From an uncultured Azospirillum sp. (GTDB taxonomy: Bacteria > Pseudomonadota > Alphaproteobacteria > RF32 > CAG-239), in assembly GCA_900538765.1 (NCBI GenBank), contig UQAB01000001.1, positions 75,679-139,678 of the forward strand: 64,000 bases of DNA, in the 5' to 3' direction. Made by a program: the position numbers and the translations under genes. The notes under the pieces are model-generated. The model was not told the origin of the DNA. It did not search any database and saw only the letters and a program-made list of their open reading frames with translations. Below, piece by piece: positions 14,186 to 54,757 of the stretch. The number at the start of each line of letters is the position of its first letter. Within the stretch, counting starts at the first letter, position 1.

Positions 14186-14460
14186 ATTTTGCTCGCAATT
14201 TCTGCACTGGTACCCCAAAATACACATTTCCAAGAAATGGTGAAGTTTGAGTCGAGTAGTAGGCGTCAAGGGCAGAAAAAGCGCAGTGTACAATGGCTAA
14301 GTAAAACTGTAACCAACGTTACAGTTTTATCTGTAACATCTCAGAAAATCTTAGTGAGTTAAGCTGTGACAACTGCTGCAACGAACTTAGATTCCTGAGC
14401 TAGTACATGAGCATTTTTCTGTCCCGCTGACAACGCACTAATCGACCATTACACCCCCTA
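14186..14460. repeat. degenerate family-A repeat copies: a 3' half-element, then a copy whose core is split by a ~108-bp insert
   Basis: ...TTTGCTCGCAATTTCTGCACTGGTACCCCAAAATACAC is the 3' half. Then AATGGTGAAGTTTGAG...GCGCAGTGTACA, the insert with hairpin AAACTGTAACcaacGTTACAGTTT, and ...GCTAGTACATGAGCATTTTTCTG. Confidence 0.6.
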
Positions 14461-14583
14461 AAAAATGGTGGAGTTTGAGGCTAATAGTAAGAAACAAGAG
14501 AAAATGCGAGGGAGTGTACATAGAAGTACATGACCGAACATTTTGCTCGCAGTTTCTGTACTAGTAGCCCAAAATACACCATT
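14461..14583. repeat. family-A structured repeat, intact copy
   Basis: AAAAATGGTGGAGTTTGAGGCTAATAGTAAGAAAC...GGGAGTGTACATAGAAGTACATGACCGAACATTTTGCTCGCAGTTTCTGTACTAGTAGCCCAAAATACACC. Termini are imperfectly complementary and inner stem AAAATG/CATTTT flanks the core. Confidence 0.7.
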
Positions 14584-14584
14584 T

Positions 14585-15583
14585 TTACGCTTGCAAACAA
14601 GTTATAGCAATAACCCCTACAATATCCTCAACCAAAGCCCCGCGGGACAAATCGTTGACCGGCGCATTCAATCCCTGCAATAAAGGACCATAGGCATCAC
14701 AACCGCCTAAACGCTGCAAGAGTTTATAACCAATGTTTCCAGCCTCAAGGCTTGGAAAAATCAAAACGTTAGCCTGTCCGGCAACATCGCTGCCCGGCGC
14801 TTTTTTCTTGGCGACAACACCATCCAATGCGGCATCGGCCTGCAACTCGCCGTCAAGCTTGATATTGAGTTTTTTATATTCTTCTGTCTGCAAATCTGCC
14901 TTGGCCATTTCTACGGCTCTCTTGACCTTGTCAACCCGCTCGCCCTTGCCAGAACCGTAAGTCGAATAAGAAAGCATAGCAACTTTCGGCTCAAAACCAA
15001 ACTTAAGAGCACTTTCGGCGGCATCCAGTGCAATATCGGCCATTTCCCTGTCCGTCGGATCAATAACAATACCGCAGTCAGAAAGCAAATATGGCTTATC
15101 CCCGAAAACCAGCAGGAAGAAAGAAGAAACCGCACGGCCTTTTTTAGCGGATTTAATAATCTGCAAAGCCGGACGCACCGTATCCGCCGTTGAATGATTG
15201 GCGCCGGAAACCATACCATCGGCATGACCGGATTTAATCATCAGCGTCCCGAAGTAATTATAGTTCAAAGCCAACTTTGCCGCATCTTCTTCCGTCAGAC
15301 CTTTGTCCTTGCGCAAGTCATACAAAAGTTTGGTATATTCGGCCAGCCGCGGAGAGTTTTCCGGCTTAACAATCTCGATTCCCTCCAGGCTCCATCCCTG
15401 CTTGGCAAAATGAGCCTTAATTTCGGCCTCATCTCCCAAAATAACCAGCTTGGCAACTTTTTCAGCGGCAATAAGATGTGCGGCTTCCAAAATCCGCATA
15501 TCTTCGCCTTCTGGCAAAACAATCGTTTTGTTCTTCAACTTGGCCTGTTCCATCAGGCTCTGCAAATATTTGTTATAAGACAT
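14585..15583 (-). CDS. pta: phosphate acetyltransferase (short Pta/Ptb family)
   Basis: MSYNKYLQSLMEQAKLKNKTIVLPEGEDMRILEAA... with a Pta C-terminal domain. Start at the internal ATG with SD AAGAAAAGG. Confidence 0.85.
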   Translation of the reverse strand: MSYNKYLQSLMEQAKLKNKTIVLPEGEDMRILEAAHLIAAEKVAKLVILGDEAEIKAHFAKQGWSLEGIEIVKPENSPRLAEYTKLLYDLRKDKGLTEEDAAKLALNYNYFGTLMIKSGHADGMVSGANHSTADTVRPALQIIKSAKKGRAVSSFFLLVFGDKPYLLSDCGIVIDPTDREMADIALDAAESALKFGFEPKVAMLSYSTYGSGKGERVDKVKRAVEMAKADLQTEEYKKLNIKLDGELQADAALDGVVAKKKAPGSDVAGQANVLIFPSLEAGNIGYKLLQRLGGCDAYGPLLQGLNAPVNDLSRGALVEDIVGVIAITCLQA

Positions 15584-18356: not shown

Positions 18357-18393
18357 CTTTGGCGAAACCGGCGAAGAAACGCCGGTTTCGCCC
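18357..18393 (+). terminator. strong hairpin after the AI-2E transporter gene
   Basis: GGCGAAACCGGCG-aagaaa-CGCCGGTTTCGCC is a perfect 13-bp stem. No clear U-run follows. Confidence 0.4.
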
Positions 18394-18410: not shown

Positions 18411-18580
18411 CTACATACAAACAATACACGAGCGAAAGAATTACAAGCATGACGCCAACATCAAAATAACCTTAGCTCCTAAAAAGGGTGTGCTGCGCCG
18501 TAATTCTTGAGCGACGTGTACACAAACAGTACACAAGCGAAAGAATTACAAGCATGACGCCTTTTTTTAGGAGCTAAGGG
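18411..18580. repeat. family-B long palindromic repeat (two GAAAGAATTACAAGCATGACGCC arms around core CGTGTACACAAACAGTACAC)
   Basis: Duplicated arm at ~18428-18457 and ~18531-18560. Outer inverted repeat CCTTAGCTCCTAAAAAGGG / CCTTTTTTTAGGAGCTAAGG. Middle stem GTAATTCTT/AAGAATTAC. Its 3' end overlaps the stop of the methyltransferase gene. Confidence 0.6.
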
Positions 18581-29444: not shown

Positions 29445-29480
29445 AAAACCATCGCCATCCCCAGAACATAACTTTTATCT

Positions 29481-29612
29481 TTAGCCGCTGTAAAAGTTTG
29501 GAGTTTGAGACTAGTAGTAAGAAACTAGAGAAACCGCGACAGGAGTGTACACAATAGTACATGACTTAGCGGTTTACTCGCTGTTTCTGTACTAATAGCC
29601 CAAAATACGAAC
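29481..29612. repeat. family-A structured repeat, single copy
   Basis: CTTAGCCGCTGTAAAAGTTTGGAGTTTGAGACTAGTAGTAAGAAAC...AAACCGCgacaGGAGTGTACACAATAGTACATGACttaGCGGTTT...GTTTCTGTACTAATAGCCCAAAATACGA. Inner stem AAACCGC/GCGGTTT. Confidence 0.65.
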
Positions 29613-29617
29613 TTTTA

Positions 29618-30082
29618 CTAAGAGCACATTTTTACCTGGCGGAGAGCCTCCCCCACCACTATCGCCGCTGAAATCGCCATATTAATGGAACGGGCCTTGG
29701 GATTCATCGGGATAAGTAAACGCGCGTCTGCCTGATTATGAACATCCTCCGGCACACCGGCGCTTTCCCGCCCCATTAAAATAATATCATGCGGCTGAAA
29801 AGAAAAATCGGTATAAGGCTCGGAAGCGTGCGTCGACATCAGAACAAGCCGGCCGTATTCTTCTGGATGCGCCGCACGATAAGCCAAAAAATCCTGCCAT
29901 GAATTATGCCGCCGGTAAGATACCTGTTCCAAATAATCCATCCCGGCTCGACGCATGGCCTTTTCATTAAAAATAAACCCGCAGGGCTCAATAATGTCGA
30001 CGGCAAAGTCAAGACAAGCCCCCAAACGCAGCAATGTCCCTGTATTTTGCGGAATATCCGGTTGAAATAAAGCCAAACGCAT
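29618..30082 (-). CDS. trmL: tRNA (cytidine/uridine-2'-O)-methyltransferase TrmL (SpoU family)
   Basis: MRLALFQPDIPQNTGTLLRLGAC is a SPOUT fold. 154 aa. Confidence 0.8.
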   Translation of the reverse strand: MRLALFQPDIPQNTGTLLRLGACLDFAVDIIEPCGFIFNEKAMRRAGMDYLEQVSYRRHNSWQDFLAYRAAHPEEYGRLVLMSTHASEPYTDFSFQPHDIILMGRESAGVPEDVHNQADARLLIPMNPKARSINMAISAAIVVGEALRQVKMCS

Positions 30083-32516: not shown

Positions 32517-32605
32517 ATAAAGAGGTGTGCTGCGCAGCATAAATTTGACGACGTGTACAACAAACAGTACACGAGGAGAATTTATGCAAGCATGACACCT
32601 CTTTT
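32517..32605. repeat. family-B long hairpin repeat
   Basis: AAGAGGTGTGCTGCGCAGCATAAATTTgacgaCGTGTACAacaaacAGTACACGaggagAATTTATGCAAGCATGACACCTCTT has nested stems and the same core as 18411..18580. Confidence 0.55.
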
Positions 32606-39649: not shown

Positions 39650-40140
39650 AAAAAACTTGGAGTTTGAGGTCAATAGTAAGAAACTAGAGAAAATGTGAGG
39701 GAGTGTACATAGAAGTACATAACCGAACATTTTACTCGCAGTTTCTGTACTAGTGACCCAAAATACGAGTTTTTCAAAATTCACTTTTAGGAGAGCAGAT
39801 AGAGTAGTTTCCAGGTGCGAGAAAAATTCTAGTGTACAGAGAAGTACATGAATTTTTTGAGACACCCTCTCCTAAAAATGTTTTCAAAAAAACTTGGAGT
39901 TTGAGGTTAATAGTAAGAAAACAGAGAAAATGCGAGGGAGTGTACATAGAAGTACATGACCGAACATTTTACTCGCAGTTTCTGTACTAGTAACCCAAAA
40001 TACGAGTTTTTTAAAATTCACTTTTAGGAGAGCAGATAGAATAGTTTCCAGGTGCAAGAAAAATTCTAGTGTACAGAGAAGTACATGAATTTTTTGAGAC
40101 ACCGTAAAACTGCTCTAGATGCCTCATAAAAGTGAATTTT
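39650..40140. repeat. two tandem ~245-bp composite repeat units (family-A element plus a second hairpin element) filling the rpsO-pnp intergenic region
   Basis: Units at ~39652-39893 and ~39892-40140. Each has AAACTTGGAGTTTGAGGT(C/T)AATAGTAAGAAA...GGGAGTGTACATAGAAGTACAT(A/G)ACCGAA...CCCAAAATACGAGTTTTT. Then TTTTAGGAGAG...TAGTGTACAGAGAAGTACATGA...CTCTCCTAAAA. ORFs 39527..39865 and 39884..40102 are artefacts of the repeat. Confidence 0.7.
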
Positions 40141-40141
40141 T

Positions 40142-43506: not shown

Positions 43507-44031
43507 TCAAAAGTTCGTTAATATCGGACGGATAAAGGCTTCATCCGCGGAAAAGGCATCATCTTCTTTAGCCAAATTCCAATAATATAAAAACGCCCCC
43601 AATCCCTTTCGGGAAGTCCAATAGTATCTAAGAACTTTCAGCGGCTGCCCGCCGATTTCCCTCATTGCGGCATTAATACCCCCAAAATGCGCATTAATGC
43701 ACTTCCAAATATCCTTGTCTGCCAAAATATCGTTTCGACCACAAAACGAATGCTGATTACAATATCCTTTAACACAATTCCGATTAACTTTGCATTCAGA
43801 ATCCGCCAATGCAATTATATAACAGCAAAAGGCGATTCCGACTGGTGTTCGGCCGGACATATCTTCTTTGTAAGGACTAATCAAACCATCAGAATAAACA
43901 ACACGGAAAGCATATTTTTCTTTTCTTCGGACATAACGCCAAAAACGGGAAAAAATCCCATGTTGATAAAAAACTGTAAAAACATTGTCATCATCACGAC
44001 ATAAACAAGGAGAGTCTTTTTCTGTTTTCAT
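43507..44031 (-). CDS. family protein (WxSS-motif, DUF1566/Lcl-C-terminal-like?)
   Basis: ...RYYWTSRKGLGAFLYYWNLAKEDDAFSADEAFIRPIL. Cassette upstream: TTGACTTTTGTCTAGCC...ATTATTAACTTAATAAAAAAATATAATTATG. Confidence 0.45.
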   Translation of the reverse strand: MKTEKDSPCLCRDDDNVFTVFYQHGIFSRFWRYVRRKEKYAFRVVYSDGLISPYKEDMSGRTPVGIAFCCYIIALADSECKVNRNCVKGYCNQHSFCGRNDILADKDIWKCINAHFGGINAAMREIGGQPLKVLRYYWTSRKGLGAFLYYWNLAKEDDAFSADEAFIRPILTNF

Positions 44032-44110
44032 AATTATATTTTTTTATTAAGTTAATAATATTTTTTCAACCCAAACCCTACCACAGGCTAGACAAAAGTC
44101 AACAAAAAAA
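44032..44110 (-). promoter_or_regulatory. family-type promoter plus AU-rich leader
   Basis: Conserved TTTTTTTGTTGACTTTTGTCTA. Confidence 0.45.
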
Positions 44111-44140
44111 GCTCCGAGTTTTAGCTCGGAGCTTTTGTTA

Positions 44141-44269
44141 TTAATCAGAAACTTCCGTCTTTTTCTTTTTTGCTTCTTCCTCAGCACAAAACTGCACCAA
44201 ATCATCAACTAAAAATCCAGCTGTTTCTAAACTGTCTTTAATACTTTGCAAAAATTCCTCTCTTTTCAT
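44141..44269 (-). pseudogene. 42-codon truncated paralog of the 51085..51696 gene (N-terminal domain only)
   Basis: Manual translation gives MKREEFLQSIKDSLETAGFLVDDLVQFCAEEEAKKKKTEVSD*. The paralog begins MEKEKFLQSIKETLEAAGFLVDDLVQYCAEKE... The upstream cassette is retained but the -35 reads TTGGCT instead of TTGACT. Too short for the ORF track. Confidence 0.5.
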
Positions 44270-44345
44270 AATTATATATTTTAAAAATTAATAATACTTT
44301 TTCTCTCTCATTACTGCAATCTAAACAAAAGCCAACAAGAAAGGT
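44270..44345 (-). promoter_or_regulatory. degenerate family-type promoter plus leader
   Basis: CTTGTTGGCTTTTGTTTAGA...AGTATTATTAATTTTTAAAATATATAATTATG. Confidence 0.4.
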
Positions 44346-44819: not shown

Positions 44820-44900
44820 AATAATTGTGTATTTAGTAGTTATAAAAATATTTTAACATCGCTACTATACTACATTTTAGACAAAAGTCAACAAAATATA
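44820..44900 (-). promoter_or_regulatory. family-type promoter plus AU-rich leader
   Basis: TTTGTTGACTTTTGTCTAAAATGTAGTATAGT...AAATACACAATTATTATG. Confidence 0.45.
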
Positions 44901-48165: not shown

Positions 48166-51006
48166 ATGAAAATCACTAGGTGTTTCAAACTTTTAGCCTG
48201 TTCTGCCATGGCTCTGTCCATATGCAGCATAGCATTCTCCGAAACAATGGCCTCACAATACAGCAATAGTTTCCAACAAGATACGGAATCCGGAAGCCGC
48301 AGTGTTCGCGTCGAATATACGGGACTAAGCCGTTCCATGGGCTTCTTTGACGAAGCACAGCCCCAACCGGAAGAAATCCAGGGAAGCGCCAATGTCAACA
48401 CCAGACTCAAACAACGTCTTCCCCAACCCAAAGTAAACGTCAAAAGTACTTACAGCGGCGAAACTTACCGTGACGGCAGTATCTTTGGCGGCACCTGCTG
48501 CACCGCCTCTAACAAACAGGATAACAGCATTTTCCCCGGACATGGCTGCTCTAAAGACGAAATGCGCGGCTGTGTTACAGTCAAACCGGCGCCAAAAAAA
48601 GTTCCCTGCAAGCCTAAAAAACGCAAAATCATTGCCAAAGAAGCTGTTCCGATGCGCGAAAACTTCGTTAATAACTACGTCACCGTCGGCCGCCGCGACG
48701 TTTATCGCAGCATCCACAATCAATGCCAGAAATTTGCCCCCATTCAGCTGGAATGGGTTGATTTCAGACTGAATGAAGAAGACATCAACGGCACAATGTC
48801 ACAAAAACTCGGCAACTACCGTTTCCGCATTTTCGGCTGCCGCCGTTTTAGCAAAGAAGCTTTCCTTGATCAGAGTCGTCTGATGCAGCAAAACATGCGC
48901 TTCATGTCCATTTTCGAAAATGAACTCAAAGACTGCTTCAAAATCGTAAAAATTCCTAACGATGTCTGTACGGAAGTAACGCCCAGCCCGCTGCCCGAAT
49001 ATTTGGTAACCGCGGAAATCACCAATTATTTTATGAACATCTGCGATAAATACGACTGGGACAACAGCGTTAAGGAAGACAAACGCACCGGCTCGTCTGA
49101 AATTACGATTAAATGGACAATCACCGACATCAATAAAACCAAAGCTTACTGGAGCGGTGAAACAAACGGTTACGGCGAATTAATGCGCGGCGAGGAAAAC
49201 GGCGAAATAATCCTGGTGGAAAGAGCCTATGCCGACGCTGTCAATAATTTGCGCAACAATCCCGGCTTCCAAAAACAACTTTCCCGCCGCTTCAGTCCGG
49301 CTGAAAGAGAAAACCAGCGCATTGAACTGATTGAGCGCGAAAGAGAGCTTAACCCGGCAAAATGCCAATACACCAAACATGAAACAGAAATCAACGAAAC
49401 AACAAAATACGTTTACACGCCTGACAAACCGGCTGAAAAAGTTGATGTTCCGGAACCCGTATCACCGCTGGTTAAAAATAAAGAAGTACTGCCGGTTCCA
49501 ACAGTCGTTGCCAAACTCTCCGACGGTTCGGTTGTCGAAAAACAGTCTGACGGCGTTGTTATCCGCAAAAACAAAGACGGCAGCAGCATAAAAGTGGCTC
49601 CGGCTCCCAAACCGGCTCCGGAAATCAAAACGACCGTTACGACAACGGTAGAAAAGGAAATTCCGATACCGACACCCCCGGTTCCGCTGCCAGAACCTGC
49701 ACCATTACCGGCAGCACCGTTACCTACCCCGGCACCGGCCGTAACCACCACCACAACAACCGTTGTTACAACGGTAACAGAAGAGCCAGCACAGGTTTTT
49801 GACGCCGCAACATTACTTGAAAAAGAGCGCCCGTCAGAACCTCTGGACATCAGCCTTATTCCGACAAATCAGGAAGAACGTTACGGTCAAAATTCTGAAT
49901 TTGAAGATGCGGAAATCAAGGTTGACCTGAAAACCACAACGTTGGATAAGCCTTCCGGCGTCATCCCTCTGCCTGTACCGCCGCTGCCGGTTCCGGAAAA
50001 GCCCTGCAACAACATGACATTGTTTGGCCCGGATTGCGACTGCAATAATAAACTGTACCGCGGTTGTGAGGACAACAAGCTGTATAAAGGCTGTGAGGAC
50101 AACAAACTTTACGGCGGCTGTGAAGCTCAAACGCTGTTTGGCGATTGCACCAAAGATCCCCAGGGCTGCAAAGTCACAAACAACATCGATTTGGATATTG
50201 ATGAAAAAGGCGGTGTTGAAGCGACCGGTACAGTCAGCAAAGAAACCTGGATCAGCGTTCCGATTAATGATCAGGGAGCTATTGACGCTCAGAATAACCT
50301 CTGCATCATTGAGCGCCCGGCTTACGATACGCCGCTGACGCCGGAAGATGTCTATAAGATACGCGCGTCAATCATCTCAATTACCAACAACCAGGGAAAG
50401 AAAGGCGCCGGTCTTATCGTTTCCGACCAGTTTGTTTTGACCTCGGCCGACCTGATAACCAAAGAAAACAATTCTTATGAATTGCAGACAATCAACGGCG
50501 TCAAATTCAAAGGCCATGCGGTTCGCCTTAACCCGAACAAGAATGTTGCCCTGATATTCATGGAAAAGAAGACGACATACACACCGCTCTCTCTGAACCT
50601 TGAACTGCCGCCGATTAATAAGGACAAATTCCTGACGCTGGGTATCCTTGATTTCAGTACCGGCGAAGGTTACCTTGAAGATTCCGGAAAAGTCAGCGGT
50701 TACCGTTATTCTGAAAACCGCGGCACAGAAATCATCATTGATACTTTCGTTCAGGATGTCACGTTGGGCGGCGCTTTGATTGATAAGCAGGGAACAATTA
50801 CCGGCTTGGCTCATACCGGTGCCAAACCGAGTGAAAATACAGACTTGTTCCTACCGATTGCCACGGCAATGAAGAGTGTCGGTCTTGAAATCTGCGGCAA
50901 ACAGATAAAAGACATTCCGGTCAAGAATACTGAAATCAGCGACGCTATTCTCTTCAACAGCGGGTCAAAAGAACCTCTGCCGATGAACAAGAGCGAACGC
51001 AAATAA
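48166..51006 (+). CDS. large secreted protein with Pro/Thr-rich linker, Cys repeats and C-terminal degenerate trypsin-like domain
   Basis: Signal peptide MKITRCFKLLACSAMALSICSIAFS. PT-rich region ...PIPTPPVPLPEPAPLPAAPLPTPAPAVTTTTTT... Triple (R/K/G)GCEDNKLY repeat. C-terminal GAGLIVSDQFVLTSADLI ... GTEIIIDTFVQDVTLGGALIDKQGTITGL resembles the S1/HtrA fold with His and Ser positions substituted. Confidence 0.55.
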   Translation: MKITRCFKLLACSAMALSICSIAFSETMASQYSNSFQQDTESGSRSVRVEYTGLSRSMGFFDEAQPQPEEIQGSANVNTRLKQRLPQPKVNVKSTYSGETYRDGSIFGGTCCTASNKQDNSIFPGHGCSKDEMRGCVTVKPAPKKVPCKPKKRKIIAKEAVPMRENFVNNYVTVGRRDVYRSIHNQCQKFAPIQLEWVDFRLNEEDINGTMSQKLGNYRFRIFGCRRFSKEAFLDQSRLMQQNMRFMSIFENELKDCFKIVKIPNDVCTEVTPSPLPEYLVTAEITNYFMNICDKYDWDNSVKEDKRTGSSEITIKWTITDINKTKAYWSGETNGYGELMRGEENGEIILVERAYADAVNNLRNNPGFQKQLSRRFSPAERENQRIELIERERELNPAKCQYTKHETEINETTKYVYTPDKPAEKVDVPEPVSPLVKNKEVLPVPTVVAKLSDGSVVEKQSDGVVIRKNKDGSSIKVAPAPKPAPEIKTTVTTTVEKEIPIPTPPVPLPEPAPLPAAPLPTPAPAVTTTTTTVVTTVTEEPAQVFDAATLLEKERPSEPLDISLIPTNQEERYGQNSEFEDAEIKVDLKTTTLDKPSGVIPLPVPPLPVPEKPCNNMTLFGPDCDCNNKLYRGCEDNKLYKGCEDNKLYGGCEAQTLFGDCTKDPQGCKVTNNIDLDIDEKGGVEATGTVSKETWISVPINDQGAIDAQNNLCIIERPAYDTPLTPEDVYKIRASIISITNNQGKKGAGLIVSDQFVLTSADLITKENNSYELQTINGVKFKGHAVRLNPNKNVALIFMEKKTTYTPLSLNLELPPINKDKFLTLGILDFSTGEGYLEDSGKVSGYRYSENRGTEIIIDTFVQDVTLGGALIDKQGTITGLAHTGAKPSENTDLFLPIATAMKSVGLEICGKQIKDIPVKNTEISDAILFNSGSKEPLPMNKSERK

Positions 51007-51084: not shown

Positions 51085-51696
51085 TTAAGATAATTCAGAC
51101 AAATCCAGCACCGGATGAACAACGTAGTTGCCGTACTTATTGCGGTAGTCCACGCCGCCCCAATCAGCGCCAATAAGCGTACAGAAGACCCACGCGTGGT
51201 AGCCGTCATACTCGGACGACGACCAATACCATTTCCCCTGCACCACTATTGTATCACCGCCAAGGCTAATCAACAAATTATCAAGCGCTTTTTTCTGTTC
51301 CTCACAGCTACTCATCACTTTTTTCCAGAATCCAATTTTTCCGGCGCTGCAAGCATGACCTTCTATTTTAATTTCACGACAATACTTCACAACTTCTCTC
51401 CACGGCACCGTCCTTGAAGAATCATGTAAGGTGATAAGATGATTCTCAAAAATAACGCCCAATGGCTTTTTGCCTTCAAGCGGAACCCATGACCGAACCA
51501 TACCCTCATACATAACTTCAAAAGGAAATCTTTCCTCGTTCTCTTTTGAAGAAACACCAACGACAGAAACGTCACTTGCTACAGCATTAATAGCCGGTAC
51601 CTCCTTTTCAGCACAATATTGCACCAAATCGTCAACTAAAAACCCTGCCGCCTCCAATGTCTCTTTAATACTTTGTAAAAATTTTTCTTTTTCCAT
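51085..51696 (-). CDS. family protein: N-terminal domain plus DUF1566/Lcl-C-terminal-like domain
   Basis: ...GKWYWSSSEYDGYHAWVFCTLIGADWGGVDYRNKYGNYVVHPV matches the hallmark YWSST...AW.v.f..G......yvRcV ending of DUF1566/FISUMP-type domains. No signal peptide. Confidence 0.5.
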   Translation of the reverse strand: MEKEKFLQSIKETLEAAGFLVDDLVQYCAEKEVPAINAVASDVSVVGVSSKENEERFPFEVMYEGMVRSWVPLEGKKPLGVIFENHLITLHDSSRTVPWREVVKYCREIKIEGHACSAGKIGFWKKVMSSCEEQKKALDNLLISLGGDTIVVQGKWYWSSSEYDGYHAWVFCTLIGADWGGVDYRNKYGNYVVHPVLDLSELS

Positions 51697-51775
51697 AATT
51701 ATATATTTTAATTAATAATAAATTTCATATTCCTACTCTATCACGCATTAGACAAAAGTCAACAAAAAAACATCT
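51697..51775 (-). promoter_or_regulatory. family-type promoter plus AU-rich leader (reference copy)
   Basis: Reverse complement reads TTTTTTTGTTGACTTTTGTCTAATGCGTGATAGAGTAGGAATATGAAATTTATTATTAATTAAAATATATAATTATG. Confidence 0.5.
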
Positions 51776-51819
51776 AAACCATTCATCTGCTTATACCGCT
51801 GCTAATCCGCCTTAATCCT

Positions 51820-52255
51820 AGCCGTAGTAAAAAGTTCAGAGTTTGCGGCAGATAATAAGAATCTCGGAAAAAGACGAAGGGAGTGTACATAGAAGTACAT
51901 GACCGAGTATTTTTTCAATGTTCTGTATTAGATGCCCAAAATACGCAGCAACAAACCCAAACCCCGACCTTAGCCGCTGTAAAAAGGTCGGAGTTTGCGG
52001 CAGATAATAAGAATCTCGGAAAAAGACGAAGGAAGTGTACACAGAAGTACATGACCGAGTATTTTTCCGAGATTCTGTATTAGGTACCCAAAATACGCAG
52101 CAACAAACCCAAGCCCCGACCTTAGCCGCTGTAAAAAGGTCGGAGTTTGCGGCAGATAATAAGAATCTCGGAAAAAGACGAAGGGAGTGTACACAGAAGT
52201 ACATGACCGAGTATTTTTCCGAGATTCTGTATTAGGTGCCCAAAATACGAGCTTT
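51820..52255. repeat. three tandem ~152-bp family-A-variant repeat units between infB stop and the 51085 gene promoter
   Basis: Each unit is ...CCGACCTTAGCCGCTGTAAAAAGGTCGGAGTTTGCGGCAGATAATAAGAATCTCGGAAAAAgacgaaGGGAGTGTACACAGAAGTACATGACCGAGTATTTTTCCGAGATTCTGTATTAGGT(A/G)CCCAAAATACG... ORFs 51836..52204, 51883..52083, 51970..52287, 52035..52235 and 52187..52393 are repeat artefacts. Confidence 0.7.
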
Positions 52256-54757
52256 TTACAATGTTGCGGCGATTTCCTCCACCTCATAACACTCTATAAA
52301 GTCACCGACTTGAATATCGTTATAGTTTTCAAAACTCATACCGCATTCATAGCCGGATTTGACCTCTTTAACATCTTCCTTAAAGCGTTTTAGCTGAGCC
52401 AAAGCGCCATCATGAATAACAACATTGTCACGCAGCAGACGAACCTTGGCACCACGCTTGACAAAGCCTTCCGTCACCATGCAGCCGCCGACTTTACCGA
52501 CACCGGTAATATTGAAGACATTGCGGATTTCGGCATAACCGATAATCTTTTCTCTCAATTCAGGCGACAACATACCTTCCAAAGCCTTCTTAATGTCATC
52601 GGCCACATCATAAATAATCGAGTAATAACGAATATCCACGCCGTCCTGACGCGCCATGTCACGGGCATGCGGAATAGCACGGACGTTAAAGCCGATGATA
52701 AAGGCATTGGAAGCCTTAGCCAGAGTAACATCGGAATCCGAAATAGGACCAACGGCAGAATGCAAAATCTGAACGCTGACTTCCTCGTTGGACAACTTCT
52801 TAATTGTACCTTCAATAGCCTCAATAGAACCTTGAACATCAGCCTTGATAATAACCGGCAAATGCTTAACTTCGCCTGACTTAATCTTATCAAGCATCTG
52901 TTCCATTGCAGACTTGGCACTCTTAACCAGTTTAGCGTCACGTTCTTTGCGAATACGATAACCGGTAACTTCCTTAGCCTGGTTTTCGTCCTTAACAATG
53001 ACAAAATCGTCACCGGCTGCCGGCGTTCCTTGCAAACCGAGAATTTCAACTGGGGTCGCCGGACCGGCTTCCGTCATCTTCTTGCCATGTTCGTTAAACA
53101 TAGCGCGGACATGTCCCCACTCCTTACCGGCAATACAAATATCACCAACGCGCAGCGTACCGTTCTGAACCAGAACCGTTGCAACAGAACCGCGGCCTTT
53201 TTCCATCTTGGCTTCAACAACCGTACCCGAAGCCATGCGATTCGGGTTGGCTTTCAAATCCAGAATTTCCGCCTGCAACAGAATAGCTTCAACCAGCTTA
53301 TCAATGTTAATACGCTTCTTAGCCGAAACTTCTGCGCTCAAATATTCACCGCCCATATCTTCAACGGCAATGCCATGTTGCAATAAAGCGGTCTTCACCT
53401 TCATCGGATCAGCGCCCGGAAGGTCAATCTTGTTAATCGCAACCACAATCGGCACTTCTGCAGCCTGAGCATGGCGGATTGCCTCAACCGTCTGCGGCAT
53501 AATGCCGTCATTGGCAGCAACCACCAGAACCACAATATCGGTAACCTTTGCACCGCGAGCACGCATTTCTGAAAAGGCCTCGTGTCCCGGCGTATCAATA
53601 AAGGCAATCTTTTTGCCTCCGGCAACTTCAATCTGATAAGCACCGATATGTTGCGTAATACCACCAGCCTCGCGAGAAGCAACGTTTGTTTCGCGCAAAG
53701 CATCCAATAACGAAGTCTTACCATGGTCAACGTGTCCCATAACCGTAACCACCGGCGCTCTCGGCAGCAAATCGGCGTCCGTATCTTCCGGACCGGTCAA
53801 CCCCTGCTCAACATCGCTGTCGGCAACTCGTTTAAACTTATGTCCGAATTCCTCAACCACAATCTGCGCCGTATCGGCATCAATCGGTTGGTTAATCGTA
53901 GCCATAACCCCTAAAGCCATCAGCTTTTTAATAACTTCGGCACCTTTTTCTGCCATACGGTTAGCCAATTCCTGAACCGTAATAATTTCAGGAATAACGA
54001 CCTCTTTAACAATTTTTTCTGTCGGCTGCTGAAAAGCCTGCTGCTTCGGCTGTTTTTTCTTAAACCGACGCCGGCCGCCGCCAAAACCATAATCATCGTC
54101 ATCTTCATCAACACTGCTCAATGTATGCAGGTTGACTTTTCCGCCGCGCCGCGGTGTTTCAAAACTGCGCTTCATAACTTTTTTGCGCTCTTGTTCAAAA
54201 ACATCATCTTTGCTCAAAGATCTTTCGGCAACTTTTTTAAACTTATGATTATGGGAATCTTCTTCCTCGTCTTCGTCCTCTTCATCGAAATCGCGGGACT
54301 TCTTTTCCTTAATCTTCTGAATACGATCATCCTCAGCCGGTGAAACCGCTGCCGTTACCACAGGACGAACAGCTGCTTTTTTCTCCTCCGCCGCCTTTTT
54401 AGCTTCTTCGGCTTCCCGTTGAGCCTTTTCCTGCTCTTCCTGTTCACGTCTCAGCTGGCGCTGGCGTTCCTTCTCTTCTTCCTCCTGCCGGCGTTTGGCA
54501 TCATGCTCTTTAGCCTCGGCAATAAGCCGCAGCTTTGCAGCTGTCGCTTCGTCAATTTTAACTTTAGGCTCTTCCGTTTCGCTGCGATTGGCGATAACCC
54601 TCTTCTTTCGCACTTCAACCTGAACAATCTTCTTGCCGTCATTATTGTGCGCCCGGGAACCGTCGCTTACATTTTTGAGTGTAAGGGTAGATTTACCTGA
54701 TAATGTTAATTTGCTTTTTGCATTATCTTCTGTCATTAATTTTTTTCTCCGTATCAT
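52256..54757 (-). CDS. infB: translation initiation factor IF-2
   Basis: GTPase domain [19 protein letters not shown]...DTPGHEAF...NKID and the IF-2 C-terminal domains. An alternative start is the ATG at 54736. Confidence 0.95.

Follow-up and report, generated by a model that had tools for sequence, protein, structure and literature searches.

Background

ERIC sequences, also called IRUs, are imperfect palindromes of 127 bp found in Enterobacteriaceae and Vibrionaceae, and for more than 30 years they have served to type strains. To our knowledge, neither the mechanism of their mobility nor the reason for the conservation of their centre has become known since they were described in 1990-91, and we know of no description of tandem arrays or of arm chimeras for them. 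They are reported to have TA termini and to duplicate a TA target site (PMC2229807, Table 1).

Several other described systems come close to the repeats studied here, which lie in a 64-kb stretch of DNA (hereafter the window) from an uncultured gut alphaproteobacterium. REP, BIME and REPIN elements (RAYT, TnpA-REP) are also clustered intergenic hairpin repeats of Proteobacteria, thought to act as single-stranded DNA hairpins with an enzyme encoded elsewhere in the genome. However, REPs are only 20-40 nt long and are tagged with GTAG or CGTC where the stem begins at its foot, and REPINs conserve the base of a long hairpin and vary at its tip, the reverse of our repeats, which conserve the tip and vary at the base. 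Co-transcription and an influence on mRNA processing are described for Correia/NEMIS, RUP, RPE, YPAL and other MITEs, which are 100-200 nt long and form long hairpins (PMC2229807). Our repeats resemble Correia/NEMIS, RUP, RPE and YPAL in the 100-200 nt length and in the long-hairpin folding, but the hallmarks of those families are target duplications and inverted repeats conserved at the ends, while here the termini vary and the centre is conserved. Lastly, attC sites, the attP of phage CTX and the ssoA of rolling-circle plasmids share with our repeats a strand-specific folded hairpin, a free arm sequence and a replication-linked orientation, and ssoA also a conserved motif in the terminal loop. 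In attC, in contrast, the conserved boxes and the crossover lie at the base of the stem, and an adjacent integrase is needed.

Two palindromic loci of one repeat family

A preliminary description of the window had pointed to two loci with long palindromic repeats. Both (B1 and B2, Table 1) are confirmed as genuine copies of a small family, B, of long hairpin-forming intergenic repeats: each is a long imperfect palindrome with the same apical stem-loop, GTGTAC / 7-8 nt loop / GTACAC. In B1 the outer inverted repeat is CCTTAGCTCCTAAAAAGGG / CCTTTTTTTAGGAGCTAAGG, the inner arms are GTGTGCTGCGCC-GTAATTCTT...AAGAATTAC-AAGCATGACGCC and the apex reads cGTGTACA-CAAAC-AGTACAC; the middle stem of B2 is GCATAAATT / AATTTATGC. 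Folded as single-stranded DNA, the 110 nt of B1 reach -30.1 kcal/mol (z -7.5; 0 of 200 shuffles were as good) and the 86 nt of B2 reach -24.1 kcal/mol (z -6.9).

The loci are as first described, with two small corrections. The right flank common to B1 and B2 is CAAGCATGAC(G/A)CC, and a G precedes CAAGCATGAC in B2 only. The other correction concerns the duplicated arm beside B1, which is 95% identical to positions 18522-18561 (family D9), does not fold by itself and is kept in all strains L001-L008. Since a decayed trace of a left arm persists next to it (AAATTCAAGAGC-CTACATAC versus TAATTCTTGAGCGACGTGTAC), what is left there is a full unit of a tandem array in degraded form and not a clean half copy. 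The idea that its left edge marks a nick in the loop is likewise weakened, the decayed left arm being recognisable upstream.

Table 1. Positions of the repeat elements and their parts in the window
Feature	Positions	Strand	Details
Solo A-type right arm, without left arm or core	14186-14225	+	family D6; 90% identical to 14540-14579
D-type hairpin, core split by an insert	14236-14454	+	profile HMM matches both halves
A-type hairpin	14460-14586	+	core 14514-14530; dG -32.4, z -8.2; E 8e-8
Degraded B unit, first of tandem array	18413-18456	+	degenerate core (ACATACAAACAATACAC) and B right arm
Inter-unit spacer of B array, AACATCAAAATAA	18457-18469	+	recurs with each extra 105-106 nt unit in L004-L006 and L008
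Complete B1 hairpin	18470-18579	+	outer stem overlaps stop codon 18574-18576 (minus strand) of a 230-aa gene
B1 left arm; apical core; right arm	18470-18515; 18516-18533; 18534-18579	+	core GTGTACACAAACAGTACA
A-type hairpin between convergent genes	29479-29624	+	core 29545-29561
Complete B2 hairpin	32519-32604	+	between L25 and pth genes; core 32553-32571 (GTGTACAACAAACAGTACA)
A-C-A-C array in rpsO-pnp spacer	39650-40141	+	cores 39703, 39832, 39940, 40069; period 237 nt
Three tandem A-type units, 152 nt each, downstream of infB	51810-52259	+	cores 51883, 52035, 52187

The family extends beyond these two loci, as six further B-type copies were found in other MAGs. Matches were obtained in contigs L044 (E 8e-6), L121 (1e-4), L100 (5e-4) and L046 (5e-3), and weaker ones in L041, L073 and L053. 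It had been noticed from the two loci that their stems differ and nevertheless pair, and this is borne out by an alignment of eight B copies, in which 91% of the cells of 20 stem pairs are paired and 10 of these pairs are altered on both sides, a result that none of 500 shuffles matched. B is a true family. Among the matches listed in a metagenome scan with the B left arm, three were true B copies, all at the two known loci, and the rest were chance matches; the literature containing the motif strings consisted of unrelated primers and oligonucleotides.

A conserved tip shared with other hairpin repeats

The core sequence GTGTACA-N3-8-AGTACA occurs in the window far above chance, with 11 matches where 0.00 are expected, plus one split copy, and all 12 of these cores are on the plus strand. 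Families A and B do share one core, at the apex of the hairpin and on the same strand, and the suggestion that they form a superfamily holds more widely than was supposed. In the genome collection the core sits atop long hairpins at more than 120 loci, in Legionella, Rhodanobacteraceae, Berkiella, Bdellovibrionales, Vampirovibrio and alphaproteobacterial MAGs. The members are imperfect palindromes of 85-150 nt whose conserved tip is made of purines, a 6-bp stem GTGTAC/GTACAY that is usually closed by a G.T wobble, a loop A-N4-6-A and again purines, while the sequence of the arms is free provided that they pair. Our definition of the superfamily asks for purine flanks, hairpin arms of 35 nt or more and, placed exactly at the tip, the core GTGTAC - A-N4-6-A - GTACAY; B1, B2 and the other B copies all carry such a tip. 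A profile HMM and a covariance model built from 116-117 members, all from other genomes, detect every A, C and D copy of the window (E 2e-10 to 9e-5); B1, B2 and the E. coli ERIC are not detected by either. The membership of B is argued from the core, the apical position, the strand and a hybrid between B and D (see below), and B is a divergent branch of the superfamily with a longer loop, AGTACAC and different arms. Viral contigs scanned with the core gave 11 matches, about 10 of which are chance matches without hairpin arms, and therefore point to no phage link.

The two GTACA words of the core had been described as direct half-sites. They are better read as the two strands of the 6-bp apical stem (GTGTAC / GTACAY), because natural variants preserve both the pairing and the G.T wobble, and because the core strand folds more stably than its complement in 104 of 115 elements with DNA parameters (105 of 127 with RNA parameters). 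The variants are GCGTAC/GTACGT, GCATAC/GTATGT, GCGTAG/CTACGT and, in ERIC, GCTTAC/GTAAGT, and all of them retain the outer wobble. Had the words been half-sites about one helical turn apart in duplex DNA, bound by a nucleoid-associated or regulatory protein, the arms would be incidental. The 11-bp distance between the GTAC motifs in most copies and the conservation of the motif across phyla would suit such a site, but the spacing goes from 11 bp in A to 12 bp in B1 and 13 bp in B2, the variants GCTTAC/GTAAGT and GCATAC/GTATGT change both GTACA words complementarily and so keep the stem and not the word, the motif invariably occupies the very tip of a long hairpin, the two strands differ from each other, and the elements avoid divergent promoter regions. 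We thus give a duplex binding site very little credence. The TGTA-N8-TACA contained in the core, which we take to resemble sites of the CRP/NtcA type, is ruled out as such a site, as its spacing varies and the stem covaries. The tip behaves as a structured, strand-specific module. A likeness of AGUACAUGAGGA and CCGGAGUG to the sarcin-ricin loop of 23S rRNA was judged coincidental, as the pairing context differs.

Relationship to ERIC and to catalogued small RNAs

Like ERIC, the repeats are intergenic, multi-copy, long imperfect palindromes that are best conserved at the centre, have no known transposase and are co-transcribed with their neighbours; B1 and B2 in particular combine a strong fold and several copies with a location within known operons or convergent gaps. 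When the E. coli ERIC was compared with 1.85 Mb, only three matches were obtained, individually weak (E 0.02 to 0.16), and these fell exactly on cores and on the same strand. The alignment of ERIC to the cores, AGGCGAC.AGT..ATCCCC.GGAG..TACAT..AGTA..TGAC.GGGGT, agrees base for base around the superfamily tip (GGAG-xxTACA-loop-AGTAxxTGA) and in the arms (AGGCGAC.AGT, GAGC, ACGCAG). By eye, the right end of ERIC, AAGTATGACG, also resembles CAAGCATGACG of B. There are also differences. The apical stem of ERIC is GCTTAC/GTAAGT with a 4-nt loop, as opposed to GTGTAC/GTACAC, a loop of 7-8 nt and other arms in B; the core of B differs from the central inverted repeat of ERIC (GTGAATCCCCAGGAGCTTACATAAGTAAGTGACTGGGGTGAGCG), and the profile HMM and covariance model give no link between the two. 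Neither TA ends nor a duplicated target of the kind reported for ERIC came to light, the sole clean indel (of a C-type hairpin) lying in a T-run, and the host is outside the Enterobacteriaceae and Vibrionaceae.

A comparison of the window with Rfam gave nothing at the gathering thresholds, and its matches with E up to 5 were at chance level and none fell on B; sX9 and V_AS5 had no match there even with E up to 5. Elsewhere in the group, sX9 (RF02228) scores 43.1 on a Rhodanobacter-type copy, against a gathering score of 44, and V_AS5 (RF02818) spans the entire E. coli ERIC with E 3e-9, although its 46.4 bits are far under the threshold of 96. The sX9 consensus, AUGuaCC.ACuCGuaCACUccGGuUCC, is the complement of the tip and a left arm; the family describes the other strand and covers just one half of the palindrome. 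Both sX9 and V_AS5 are catalogued as single sRNA genes rather than repeats. As one would expect of a repeat, sX9 ranks among the 20 bacterial sRNAs annotated most often (PMC9029176). In our best explanation the B family belongs to a large, mostly unrecognised group related to ERIC, and the analysis suggests that ERIC itself is a branch of a far larger group of hairpin repeats that conserve the tip.

Gene context and the possibility of an RNA function

Elements are about three times as frequent in gaps between convergent genes (23) as in gaps between divergent genes (8). B1 itself lies between convergent genes, with an A5 run before its inner hairpin and a T7 run after it, which makes a bidirectional terminator-like effect possible. 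B2 is within the 3' region of the L25 gene and precedes a canonical terminator (minus strand, 32478-32462). A simple scan for intrinsic terminators did not flag either B hairpin in its entirety.

One may consider that the elements function as RNA, i.e. that the co-transcribed hairpins stabilise or destabilise 3' ends, terminate transcription, are cut by an RNase or are sRNAs, in which case the tip would be an RNA-protein site and the covariation would reflect selection on RNA structure. Besides the gene context just described, the strong covariation, the conserved wobble of G.U type and the tandem G-A flanks are typical of RNA motifs. Relatives are catalogued as RNAs, with sX9 seen on Northern blots in Xanthomonas and V_AS5 covering an ERIC, and ERIC affects mRNA stability in Yersinia (PMC2229807, PMC10969869). 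Yet at five of seven window loci the core strand, which has the better structure, runs antisense to the operon mRNA, and across genomes the orientation to the flanking genes is mixed, 20 elements being sense and 32 antisense; sX9 is likewise the complement strand. In addition, structure is dispensable at the B2 site, where all ten other strain contigs sampled have a chimera without a hairpin (see below), and an RNA function leaves the loop insertion and the changes in array size unexplained. It is a possible but rather unlikely account of the repeats.

Variation between strains

The window is matched by human-gut metagenome contigs and MAGs. The B array at 18.5 kb comprises 0.5, 1.5, 2.5 or at least 3.5 units depending on the strain. 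Downstream of infB the spacer holding the A array measures 256, 408, 560, 712 or 864 nt in other strains, in steps of 152 nt, and these lengths, taken alone and without comparison of sequence, fit one to five A units. In the rpsO-pnp spacer one A+C unit is absent from L141 and the last C hairpin from L140; the latter is the one clean indel that we found, and it sits in a T-run, not at a TA.

At the B2 locus, all ten of the other strain contigs sampled have a B left arm joined at the core to a D right arm, a chimera that also occurs in two JGI contigs and is incapable of forming the hairpin. Arms of B can thus be exchanged, at the core, for arms from other families. A related species lacks the B hairpin, its site being too diverged to read. 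In the split D-type hairpin, GTGTACA ends at 14292 and AGTACATGA begins at 14402, so that the 109-nt insert (14293-14401) sits exactly between GTGTACA and AGTACA, and strains L004, L005 and L008 have an intact core there, GTGTACA-CACC/CACT-AGTACATGA. Internal insertions have been reported for ERIC as well. Solo arms stop at or near the core as well: the window has two such right arms, and contigs of other MAGs have two left ones. That the arrays vary in copy number is demonstrated, and gain or loss of a hairpin, the joining of a foreign arm at the tip and an insertion in the tip loop are each observed in one case.

Breakpoints at the core bring to mind a conservative site-specific recombinase of the tyrosine or serine type (compare dif/Xer and integron attC), for which GTGTAC/GTACAY would be the binding arms around an overlap of 6-8 bp. 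The layout of the core, with inverted arms of 6-7 bp around a spacer of 6-8 bp, suits such a site, the arms of different families meet exactly there, and the tandem arrays can be read as core-to-core units. However, both the length (6 to 8) and the sequence of the spacer vary among copies, which conservative recombination does not tolerate, and the 109-nt insert lacks the second core that an integrated circle would have left at its far end. The hybrids are accounted for equally well by recombination within the one stretch of shared homology. No protein family recurs within 8 kb of the elements at about 120 loci, where only housekeeping genes and no recombinase gene were found, and Pfam and NCBIfam scans of 34 window ORFs revealed no RAYT gene and no transposase, recombinase, integrase or HUH domain; the window ORFs scanned likewise include no cassette genes and no plasmid context, the neighbours being housekeeping genes. 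Inspection by eye also shows no R''/R' boxes of attC (RYYYAAC / GTTRRRY) at the foot of the stem, be it in B1, B2, A, C or D. A recombinase crossover site is accordingly most improbable.

Core breakpoints can in fact arise without a dedicated enzyme, either through recombination at the only shared 17-20 nt or through cleavage of the loop by the host. This touches on another alternative, in which the repeats are neutral relics of old insertions, their palindromy kept by intrastrand repair of one arm from the other and their rearrangements due to slippage and to tip cleavage of the SbcCD type by the host. The arrays do change by whole units, as ordinary tandem repeats do, the C hairpin indel is in a T-run, and chimeras without a hairpin are tolerated; Sharp and co-workers reportedly found palindrome-linked deletions and internal insertions for ERIC, which we count on the same side. 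Neutrality nonetheless fails to explain why a tip of about 20 nt, with its G.T wobble and compensated changes in the stem, has been retained in Alphaproteobacteria, Legionella and Vampirovibrio alike when the arms have lost all resemblance, and it leaves the origin of new copies and families at new loci unexplained. We regard it as improbable.

Proposed mode of action

The account that we favour, and consider reasonably probable, is that the B loci are non-coding, non-autonomous, ERIC-like palindromic repeats whose tip is recognised in trans and which spread as single-stranded DNA hairpins. The apical hairpin would be the module recognised, the elements would act and spread while exposed as single-stranded hairpins during replication, the enzyme would be encoded elsewhere unless the elements exploit hairpin processing by the host, and effects on neighbouring mRNAs, such as those of 3'-end hairpins, would be side effects.

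That the active form is probably single-stranded DNA is inferred solely from the strand asymmetry and from a moderate replication-strand bias for which gene orientation is a confounder: of 102 loci across genomes, 72 have the core on the C-rich strand, and the skew at third codon positions gives 63 versus 38. A mutational origin of the strand asymmetry was considered and rejected, as a C-to-T bias would place the G.T on the G-rich or coding strand, and the opposite is seen. The better-folding strand is on the leading-strand template; elements of the IS200/IS605 type are active on the lagging-strand template. Since the better-folding strand is not on the lagging-strand template, the replication-strand bias may reflect selection against stable hairpins rather than a mechanism.

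A more specific version, which we find unlikely, would make the conserved apical hairpin the substrate of a hairpin-specific DNA enzyme acting at the loop, e.g. one of HUH type or another single-strand nuclease/ligase. Were this true, such an enzyme would explain the swaps of arms at the tip, the insertion in the tip and the growth of arrays by whole units, as well as the spread of ERIC-like repeats through Proteobacteria and beyond, and this gut alphaproteobacterium with its strain variation would be a natural system for identifying the mechanism of ERIC mobility.

The group spans Alpha-, Beta- and Gammaproteobacteria, Bdellovibrionales and a Vampirovibrio MAG, at least two 'sRNA' families of Rfam match instances of it, and its elements are visibly in flux between strains of one abundant human-gut bacterium. 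The tip provides a defined motif for comparative genomics, for example for phylogenetic profiling in search of a partner protein. Such loci will also confuse assembly and sRNA annotation, and the repeats account for part of the variation in intergenic length among gut MAGs.

B-type hairpins in the window and in other genomes

The sequence at 18.5 kb and 32.5 kb is as the preliminary description had it, two long palindromic repeats with differing but paired stems, here called B1 and B2. In B1 an outer stem (CCTTAGCTCCTAAAAAGGG / CCTTTTTTTAGGAGCTAAGG) is followed by inner arms (GTGTGCTGCGCC-GTAATTCTT...AAGAATTAC-AAGCATGACGCC) and a tip, cGTGTAC-ACAAACA-GTACAC, while the middle stem of B2 (GCATAAATT / AATTTATGC) is wholly unlike that of B1 with its pairing retained. 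Folded as single-stranded DNA, B1 reaches -30.1 kcal/mol (z -7.5) and B2 -24.1 kcal/mol (z -6.9), with no shuffled sequence as good in either case. The duplicated arm described at 18.5 kb is also there, with 95% identity to 18522-18561. B1 lies between convergent genes, its outer stem overlapping the stop codon of a 230-aa gene, and B2 sits between the L25 gene and the canonical terminator preceding pth. Between the end of the AI-2E transporter gene and the B array, immediately upstream of the latter, is a separate 13-bp perfect hairpin (GGCGAAACCGGCG-AAGAAA-CGCCGGTTTCGCC), which shows a one-sided change between strains (ACCGG / ACGGG).

An nhmmer search of loci taken from other genomes (L-numbers), with B1 and B2 as the queries, gave B-type copies in L044 (E 8e-6), L121 (1e-4), L100 (5e-4) and L046 (5e-3), and weaker matches (E 0.05 to 2.5) in L041, L073 and a Burkholderiales contig, L053; several B-type copies in other genomes adjoin copies of another arm family, C. 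From base to tip, the B signature consists of an outer stem, a 3-bp helix T(G/A)C...G(C/T)A, a GNC bulge, a variable stem of 9-13 bp and, on the tip side, (GAGC)GAC, GTGTAC, an A-rich loop of 6-9 nt and GTACA(C/T). An alignment of eight copies has 20 predicted pairs, with 91% of cells paired and 10 of the 20 pairs changed on both sides, and this pairing was matched neither by shuffles (0/500) nor by any slid register. A metagenome scan with the exact B left arm gave, among the matches listed, only the two known loci. The B loci are real and B is a real family. Since further B-type copies exist and the core is far above its chance frequency, the outcome that would have refuted the preliminary description, namely only two B copies and a core as frequent as by chance, does not apply.

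Hairpin repeats and other features of the window
Feature	Position	Strand	Description
B1	18470-18579	+	110-nt imperfect palindrome
B2	32519-32604	+	outer-inner frame and tip as in B1; loop 8 nt
Family A cores	14.5 kb, 29.5 kb, 39.70 kb, 39.94 kb, 51.9 kb	+	three tandem copies at 51.9 kb
Family B cores	18.5 kb, 32.5 kb	+	
Family C cores	39.83 kb, 40.07 kb	+	
Family D core	14.3 kb (14286-14410)	+	split copy
Insert in D core	14293-14401		109 nt
Solo arms	14186-14225, 18413-18456		end at or near core; the second is the duplicated B arm
Perfect hairpin	18361-18392		13 bp
Separate repeat family	44017-44343, 44827-44899, 51608-51770		shared TAGACAAAAGTCAACAAAA box
In-frame tandem repeat	50047-50127		27 nt, three copies
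Low-G+C segment	57817-59652		30% G+C

A superfamily sharing the tip

The window holds 11 matches to the core GTGTACA-N3-8-AGTACA where 0.00 are expected; every one is on the + strand, and allowing two mismatches gave no further matches there. A twelfth core is split by an insert. All window cores, of four arm families (A to D), are intergenic. The window itself consists of housekeeping DNA from a Gram-negative bacterium of the human gut that is known from metagenomes and MAGs only and whose closest named relatives are MAGs titled 'uncultured Alphaproteobacteria'. Its genes include pta-ackA, the AI-2E transporter, holA, L25-pth, rbfA-truB-rpsO-pnp and rimP-nusA-infB, and no transposase or recombinase domain was found among 34 ORFs scanned.

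When a genome collection was searched with GTGTACANNNNAGTACATGA, at least 120 loci matched, and nearly all of those listed form the tip of hairpins of 100-160 nt. Hosts among the matches listed are Legionella, Rhodanobacteraceae, Lysobacterales, many gamma- and alphaproteobacterial MAGs, Berkiella, Gallionella, Bdellovibrionales, a Vampirovibrio MAG, Rickettsiales and Holosporales, with a few matches in MAGs labelled Clostridia or Saccharibacteria. Profiles built from this superfamily (consensus AA.CGGA-GTGTACA-NNNN-AGTACATGA-G(G/C)ATT) pick up all window copies of A, C and D (E 2e-10 to 9e-5), the split D copy being hit in its two halves, as well as a copy on a Yersinia plasmid. B1 and B2 escape them, and B is therefore a divergent branch, tied to the other families by its core, apical position, strand and B/D chimeras. 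The earlier idea of a superfamily built on a shared core was right, the core being common to A, B, C, D and the genome loci.

The gamma-type consensus carries the same word in direct orientation on both arms (left GGAGCGCAGG, right CCGAGCACC), so that these segments do not pair but make an internal loop, which is conserved. A likeness of AGUACAUGAGGA and CCGGAGUG to the 23S sarcin-ricin loop region is probably coincidental. In four Rhodanobacteraceae loci (L088, L109, L110, L056) several gamma-type elements have small hairpins of roughly 25-40 nt nested in the left or right arm as insertions; their internal positions coincide between elements, recalling the fixed-site insertions reported in ERIC.

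ERIC, reported from Enterobacteriaceae and Vibrionaceae, is a MITE-like palindrome of 127 bp with no known transposase; in Yersinia it affects the stability of mRNAs (PMC2229807, PMC10969869). Its classical 44-bp centre occurs in 5426 of 5426 complete E. coli genomes. An nhmmer search of 1.85 Mb of fetched loci with the full E. coli ERIC gave three hits only (E 0.021, 0.024 and 0.16), all exactly on cores and on the same strand (AGGCGAC.AGT..ATCCCC.GGAG..TACAT..AGTA..TGAC.GGGGT); the E-values are weak individually, and it is the position of all three hits that points to a link with the superfamily. A BLAST search with a Rhodanobacter-type copy also found a Yersinia copy with the core GCGTACA-CGT-AGTACGT. 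The B elements are a new family, from an uncultured gut alphaproteobacterium, within a known kind, the ERIC-like palindromic repeats.

Repeat copies match two Rfam 'sRNA' families: a Rhodanobacter-type copy comes near the threshold of sX9 (RF02228, a Xanthomonas sRNA; 43.1 bits, gathering score 44), and E. coli ERIC falls far below that of V_AS5 (RF02818; 46.4 bits, gathering score 96, E 3e-9). The sX9 consensus is the complement of the tip and a left arm. sX9, which has no known role, was seen as a Northern band of 75 nt (PMC3300014); it is one of the 20 bacterial sRNAs annotated most often (PMC9029176), as expected of a repeat. Annotations using RF02228 or RF02818 may label repeats as sRNA genes.

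The tip as a structure

The preliminary description suggested a common motif with direct GTACA half-sites, which would lie on duplex DNA. Long hairpins, however, carry as apical stems not only the standard GTGTAC/GTACAT but GCGTAC/GTACGT, GCATAC/GTATGT, GTGTAT/ATACAT, GCGTAG/CTACGT, GCTTAC/GTAAGT (ERIC) and GTGTAC/GTACAC (B), in which the inner pairs change on both sides and an outer G.T wobble is kept in all but B. With RNA parameters the core strand is the better-folding one of the two in 105 of 127 cases, and with DNA parameters in 104 of 115; the GTACA spacing is 11 bp in A, 12 in B1 and 13 in B2. Since the stem covaries, one strand folds better and the spacing varies, the duplex reading is disfavoured: the tip is a structure of which one strand is special, an apical hairpin that is conserved, covarying and strand-asymmetric, with free arm sequence.

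Variation between strains

Contigs with an identical neighbouring protein were compared, and DNA rearrangements occur both at the tip and in whole units. At 18.5 kb the intergenic length is 150, 256, 361-362 or 552 nt; with a B unit of 105-106 nt, this amounts to 0.5, 1.5, 2.5 or at least 3.5 units. The 51.9-kb spacer, judged by gene coordinates rather than sequence, measures 256, 408, 560, 712 or 864 nt, which fits one to five A units of 152 nt. The rpsO-pnp spacer is short of a whole A+C unit in one strain and of only the last C hairpin in another, the latter difference being a 128-nt indel within a T-run. The B hairpin at the L25-pth site is absent in one related species (pnp 85% identical). 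Solo arms occur in the window and in other MAG contigs (L046, L073).

At 32.5 kb, all 10 other strain contigs sampled have a chimera whose left arm is that of B and whose right arm is that of family D, with the junction at the core; six of them have an extra complete D hairpin as well. In this chimera the long hairpin cannot form. That such a hairpin-less chimera is tolerated weakens a serious rival explanation, in which the elements work at the RNA level as 3'-end hairpins, RNase targets or sX9-like transcripts, as does the antisense orientation of the elements in the window.

The core of a D copy at 14.3 kb is intact in three strains; in five others, and in the window, it is interrupted by a 109-nt insert that falls exactly between its GTGTACA and its AGTACATGA. 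The insert, which had no other occurrence in all DNA searched, may be a fragment of an element targeting hairpin loops, in the way that IS1397 targets REP loops. Two hairpins lie in it, one perfect and resembling a bidirectional terminator (AAAACTGTAAC-CAAC-GTTACAGTTTT), the other about 60 nt long. The core is unlikely to be a classical site-specific recombination site, because its spacer varies between copies in both sequence and length, there is no second core with the insert, and no recombinase was found among the window ORFs scanned or near the genome-scan loci listed.

Orientation and possible mode of spread

Counting the split copy, 12 of 12 window cores, at about seven independent loci, lie on the + strand, which is C-rich throughout and antisense to most genes. 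Among the genome-scan loci listed, the core strand is the C-rich one in 72 of 102, in 43 versus 11 where |skew| exceeds 0.05, and in 63 versus 38 by third-codon-position skew, a measure here uncorrelated with gene strand. Relative to flanking ORFs (crude calls), 20 cores are sense and 32 antisense, while 23 lie between convergent genes and 8 between divergent ones. Given the skew bias and these mixed orientations, core orientation appears tied more to the replication strand than to transcription, though the two are confounded.

The better-folding strand is the leading-strand template, a position that selection against stable lagging-strand-template hairpins explains at least as well as an IS200/IS605-like mechanism. 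We suggest that the tip is probably a module recognised in trans, whose active form would be a single-stranded DNA hairpin; spread and rearrangement would then proceed via a putative hairpin-specific enzyme, or else the host would process the loop, with subsequent repair at the core that the elements share. Among the genome-scan loci listed, no enzyme gene is found repeatedly in the neighbourhood of the elements. To our knowledge, three things have not been described before: how broad the group is, that its conserved tip is structural in nature, and that strains differ at the tip. Together they offer a practical handle on the old question of how ERIC-type elements move.

Other features of the window

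A separate repeat family with a shared box precedes several small ORFs (147-209 aa, no Pfam match) and extends into their 5' ends; these ORFs look like paralogous genes with a conserved 5' region. A segment of low G+C (about 45% elsewhere in the window) is probably of foreign origin or evolving fast; the 611-aa ORF in it matches no family. The in-frame tandem repeat falls within a 946-aa ORF whose sole Pfam match (precomputed) is a weak one to Trypsin_2.
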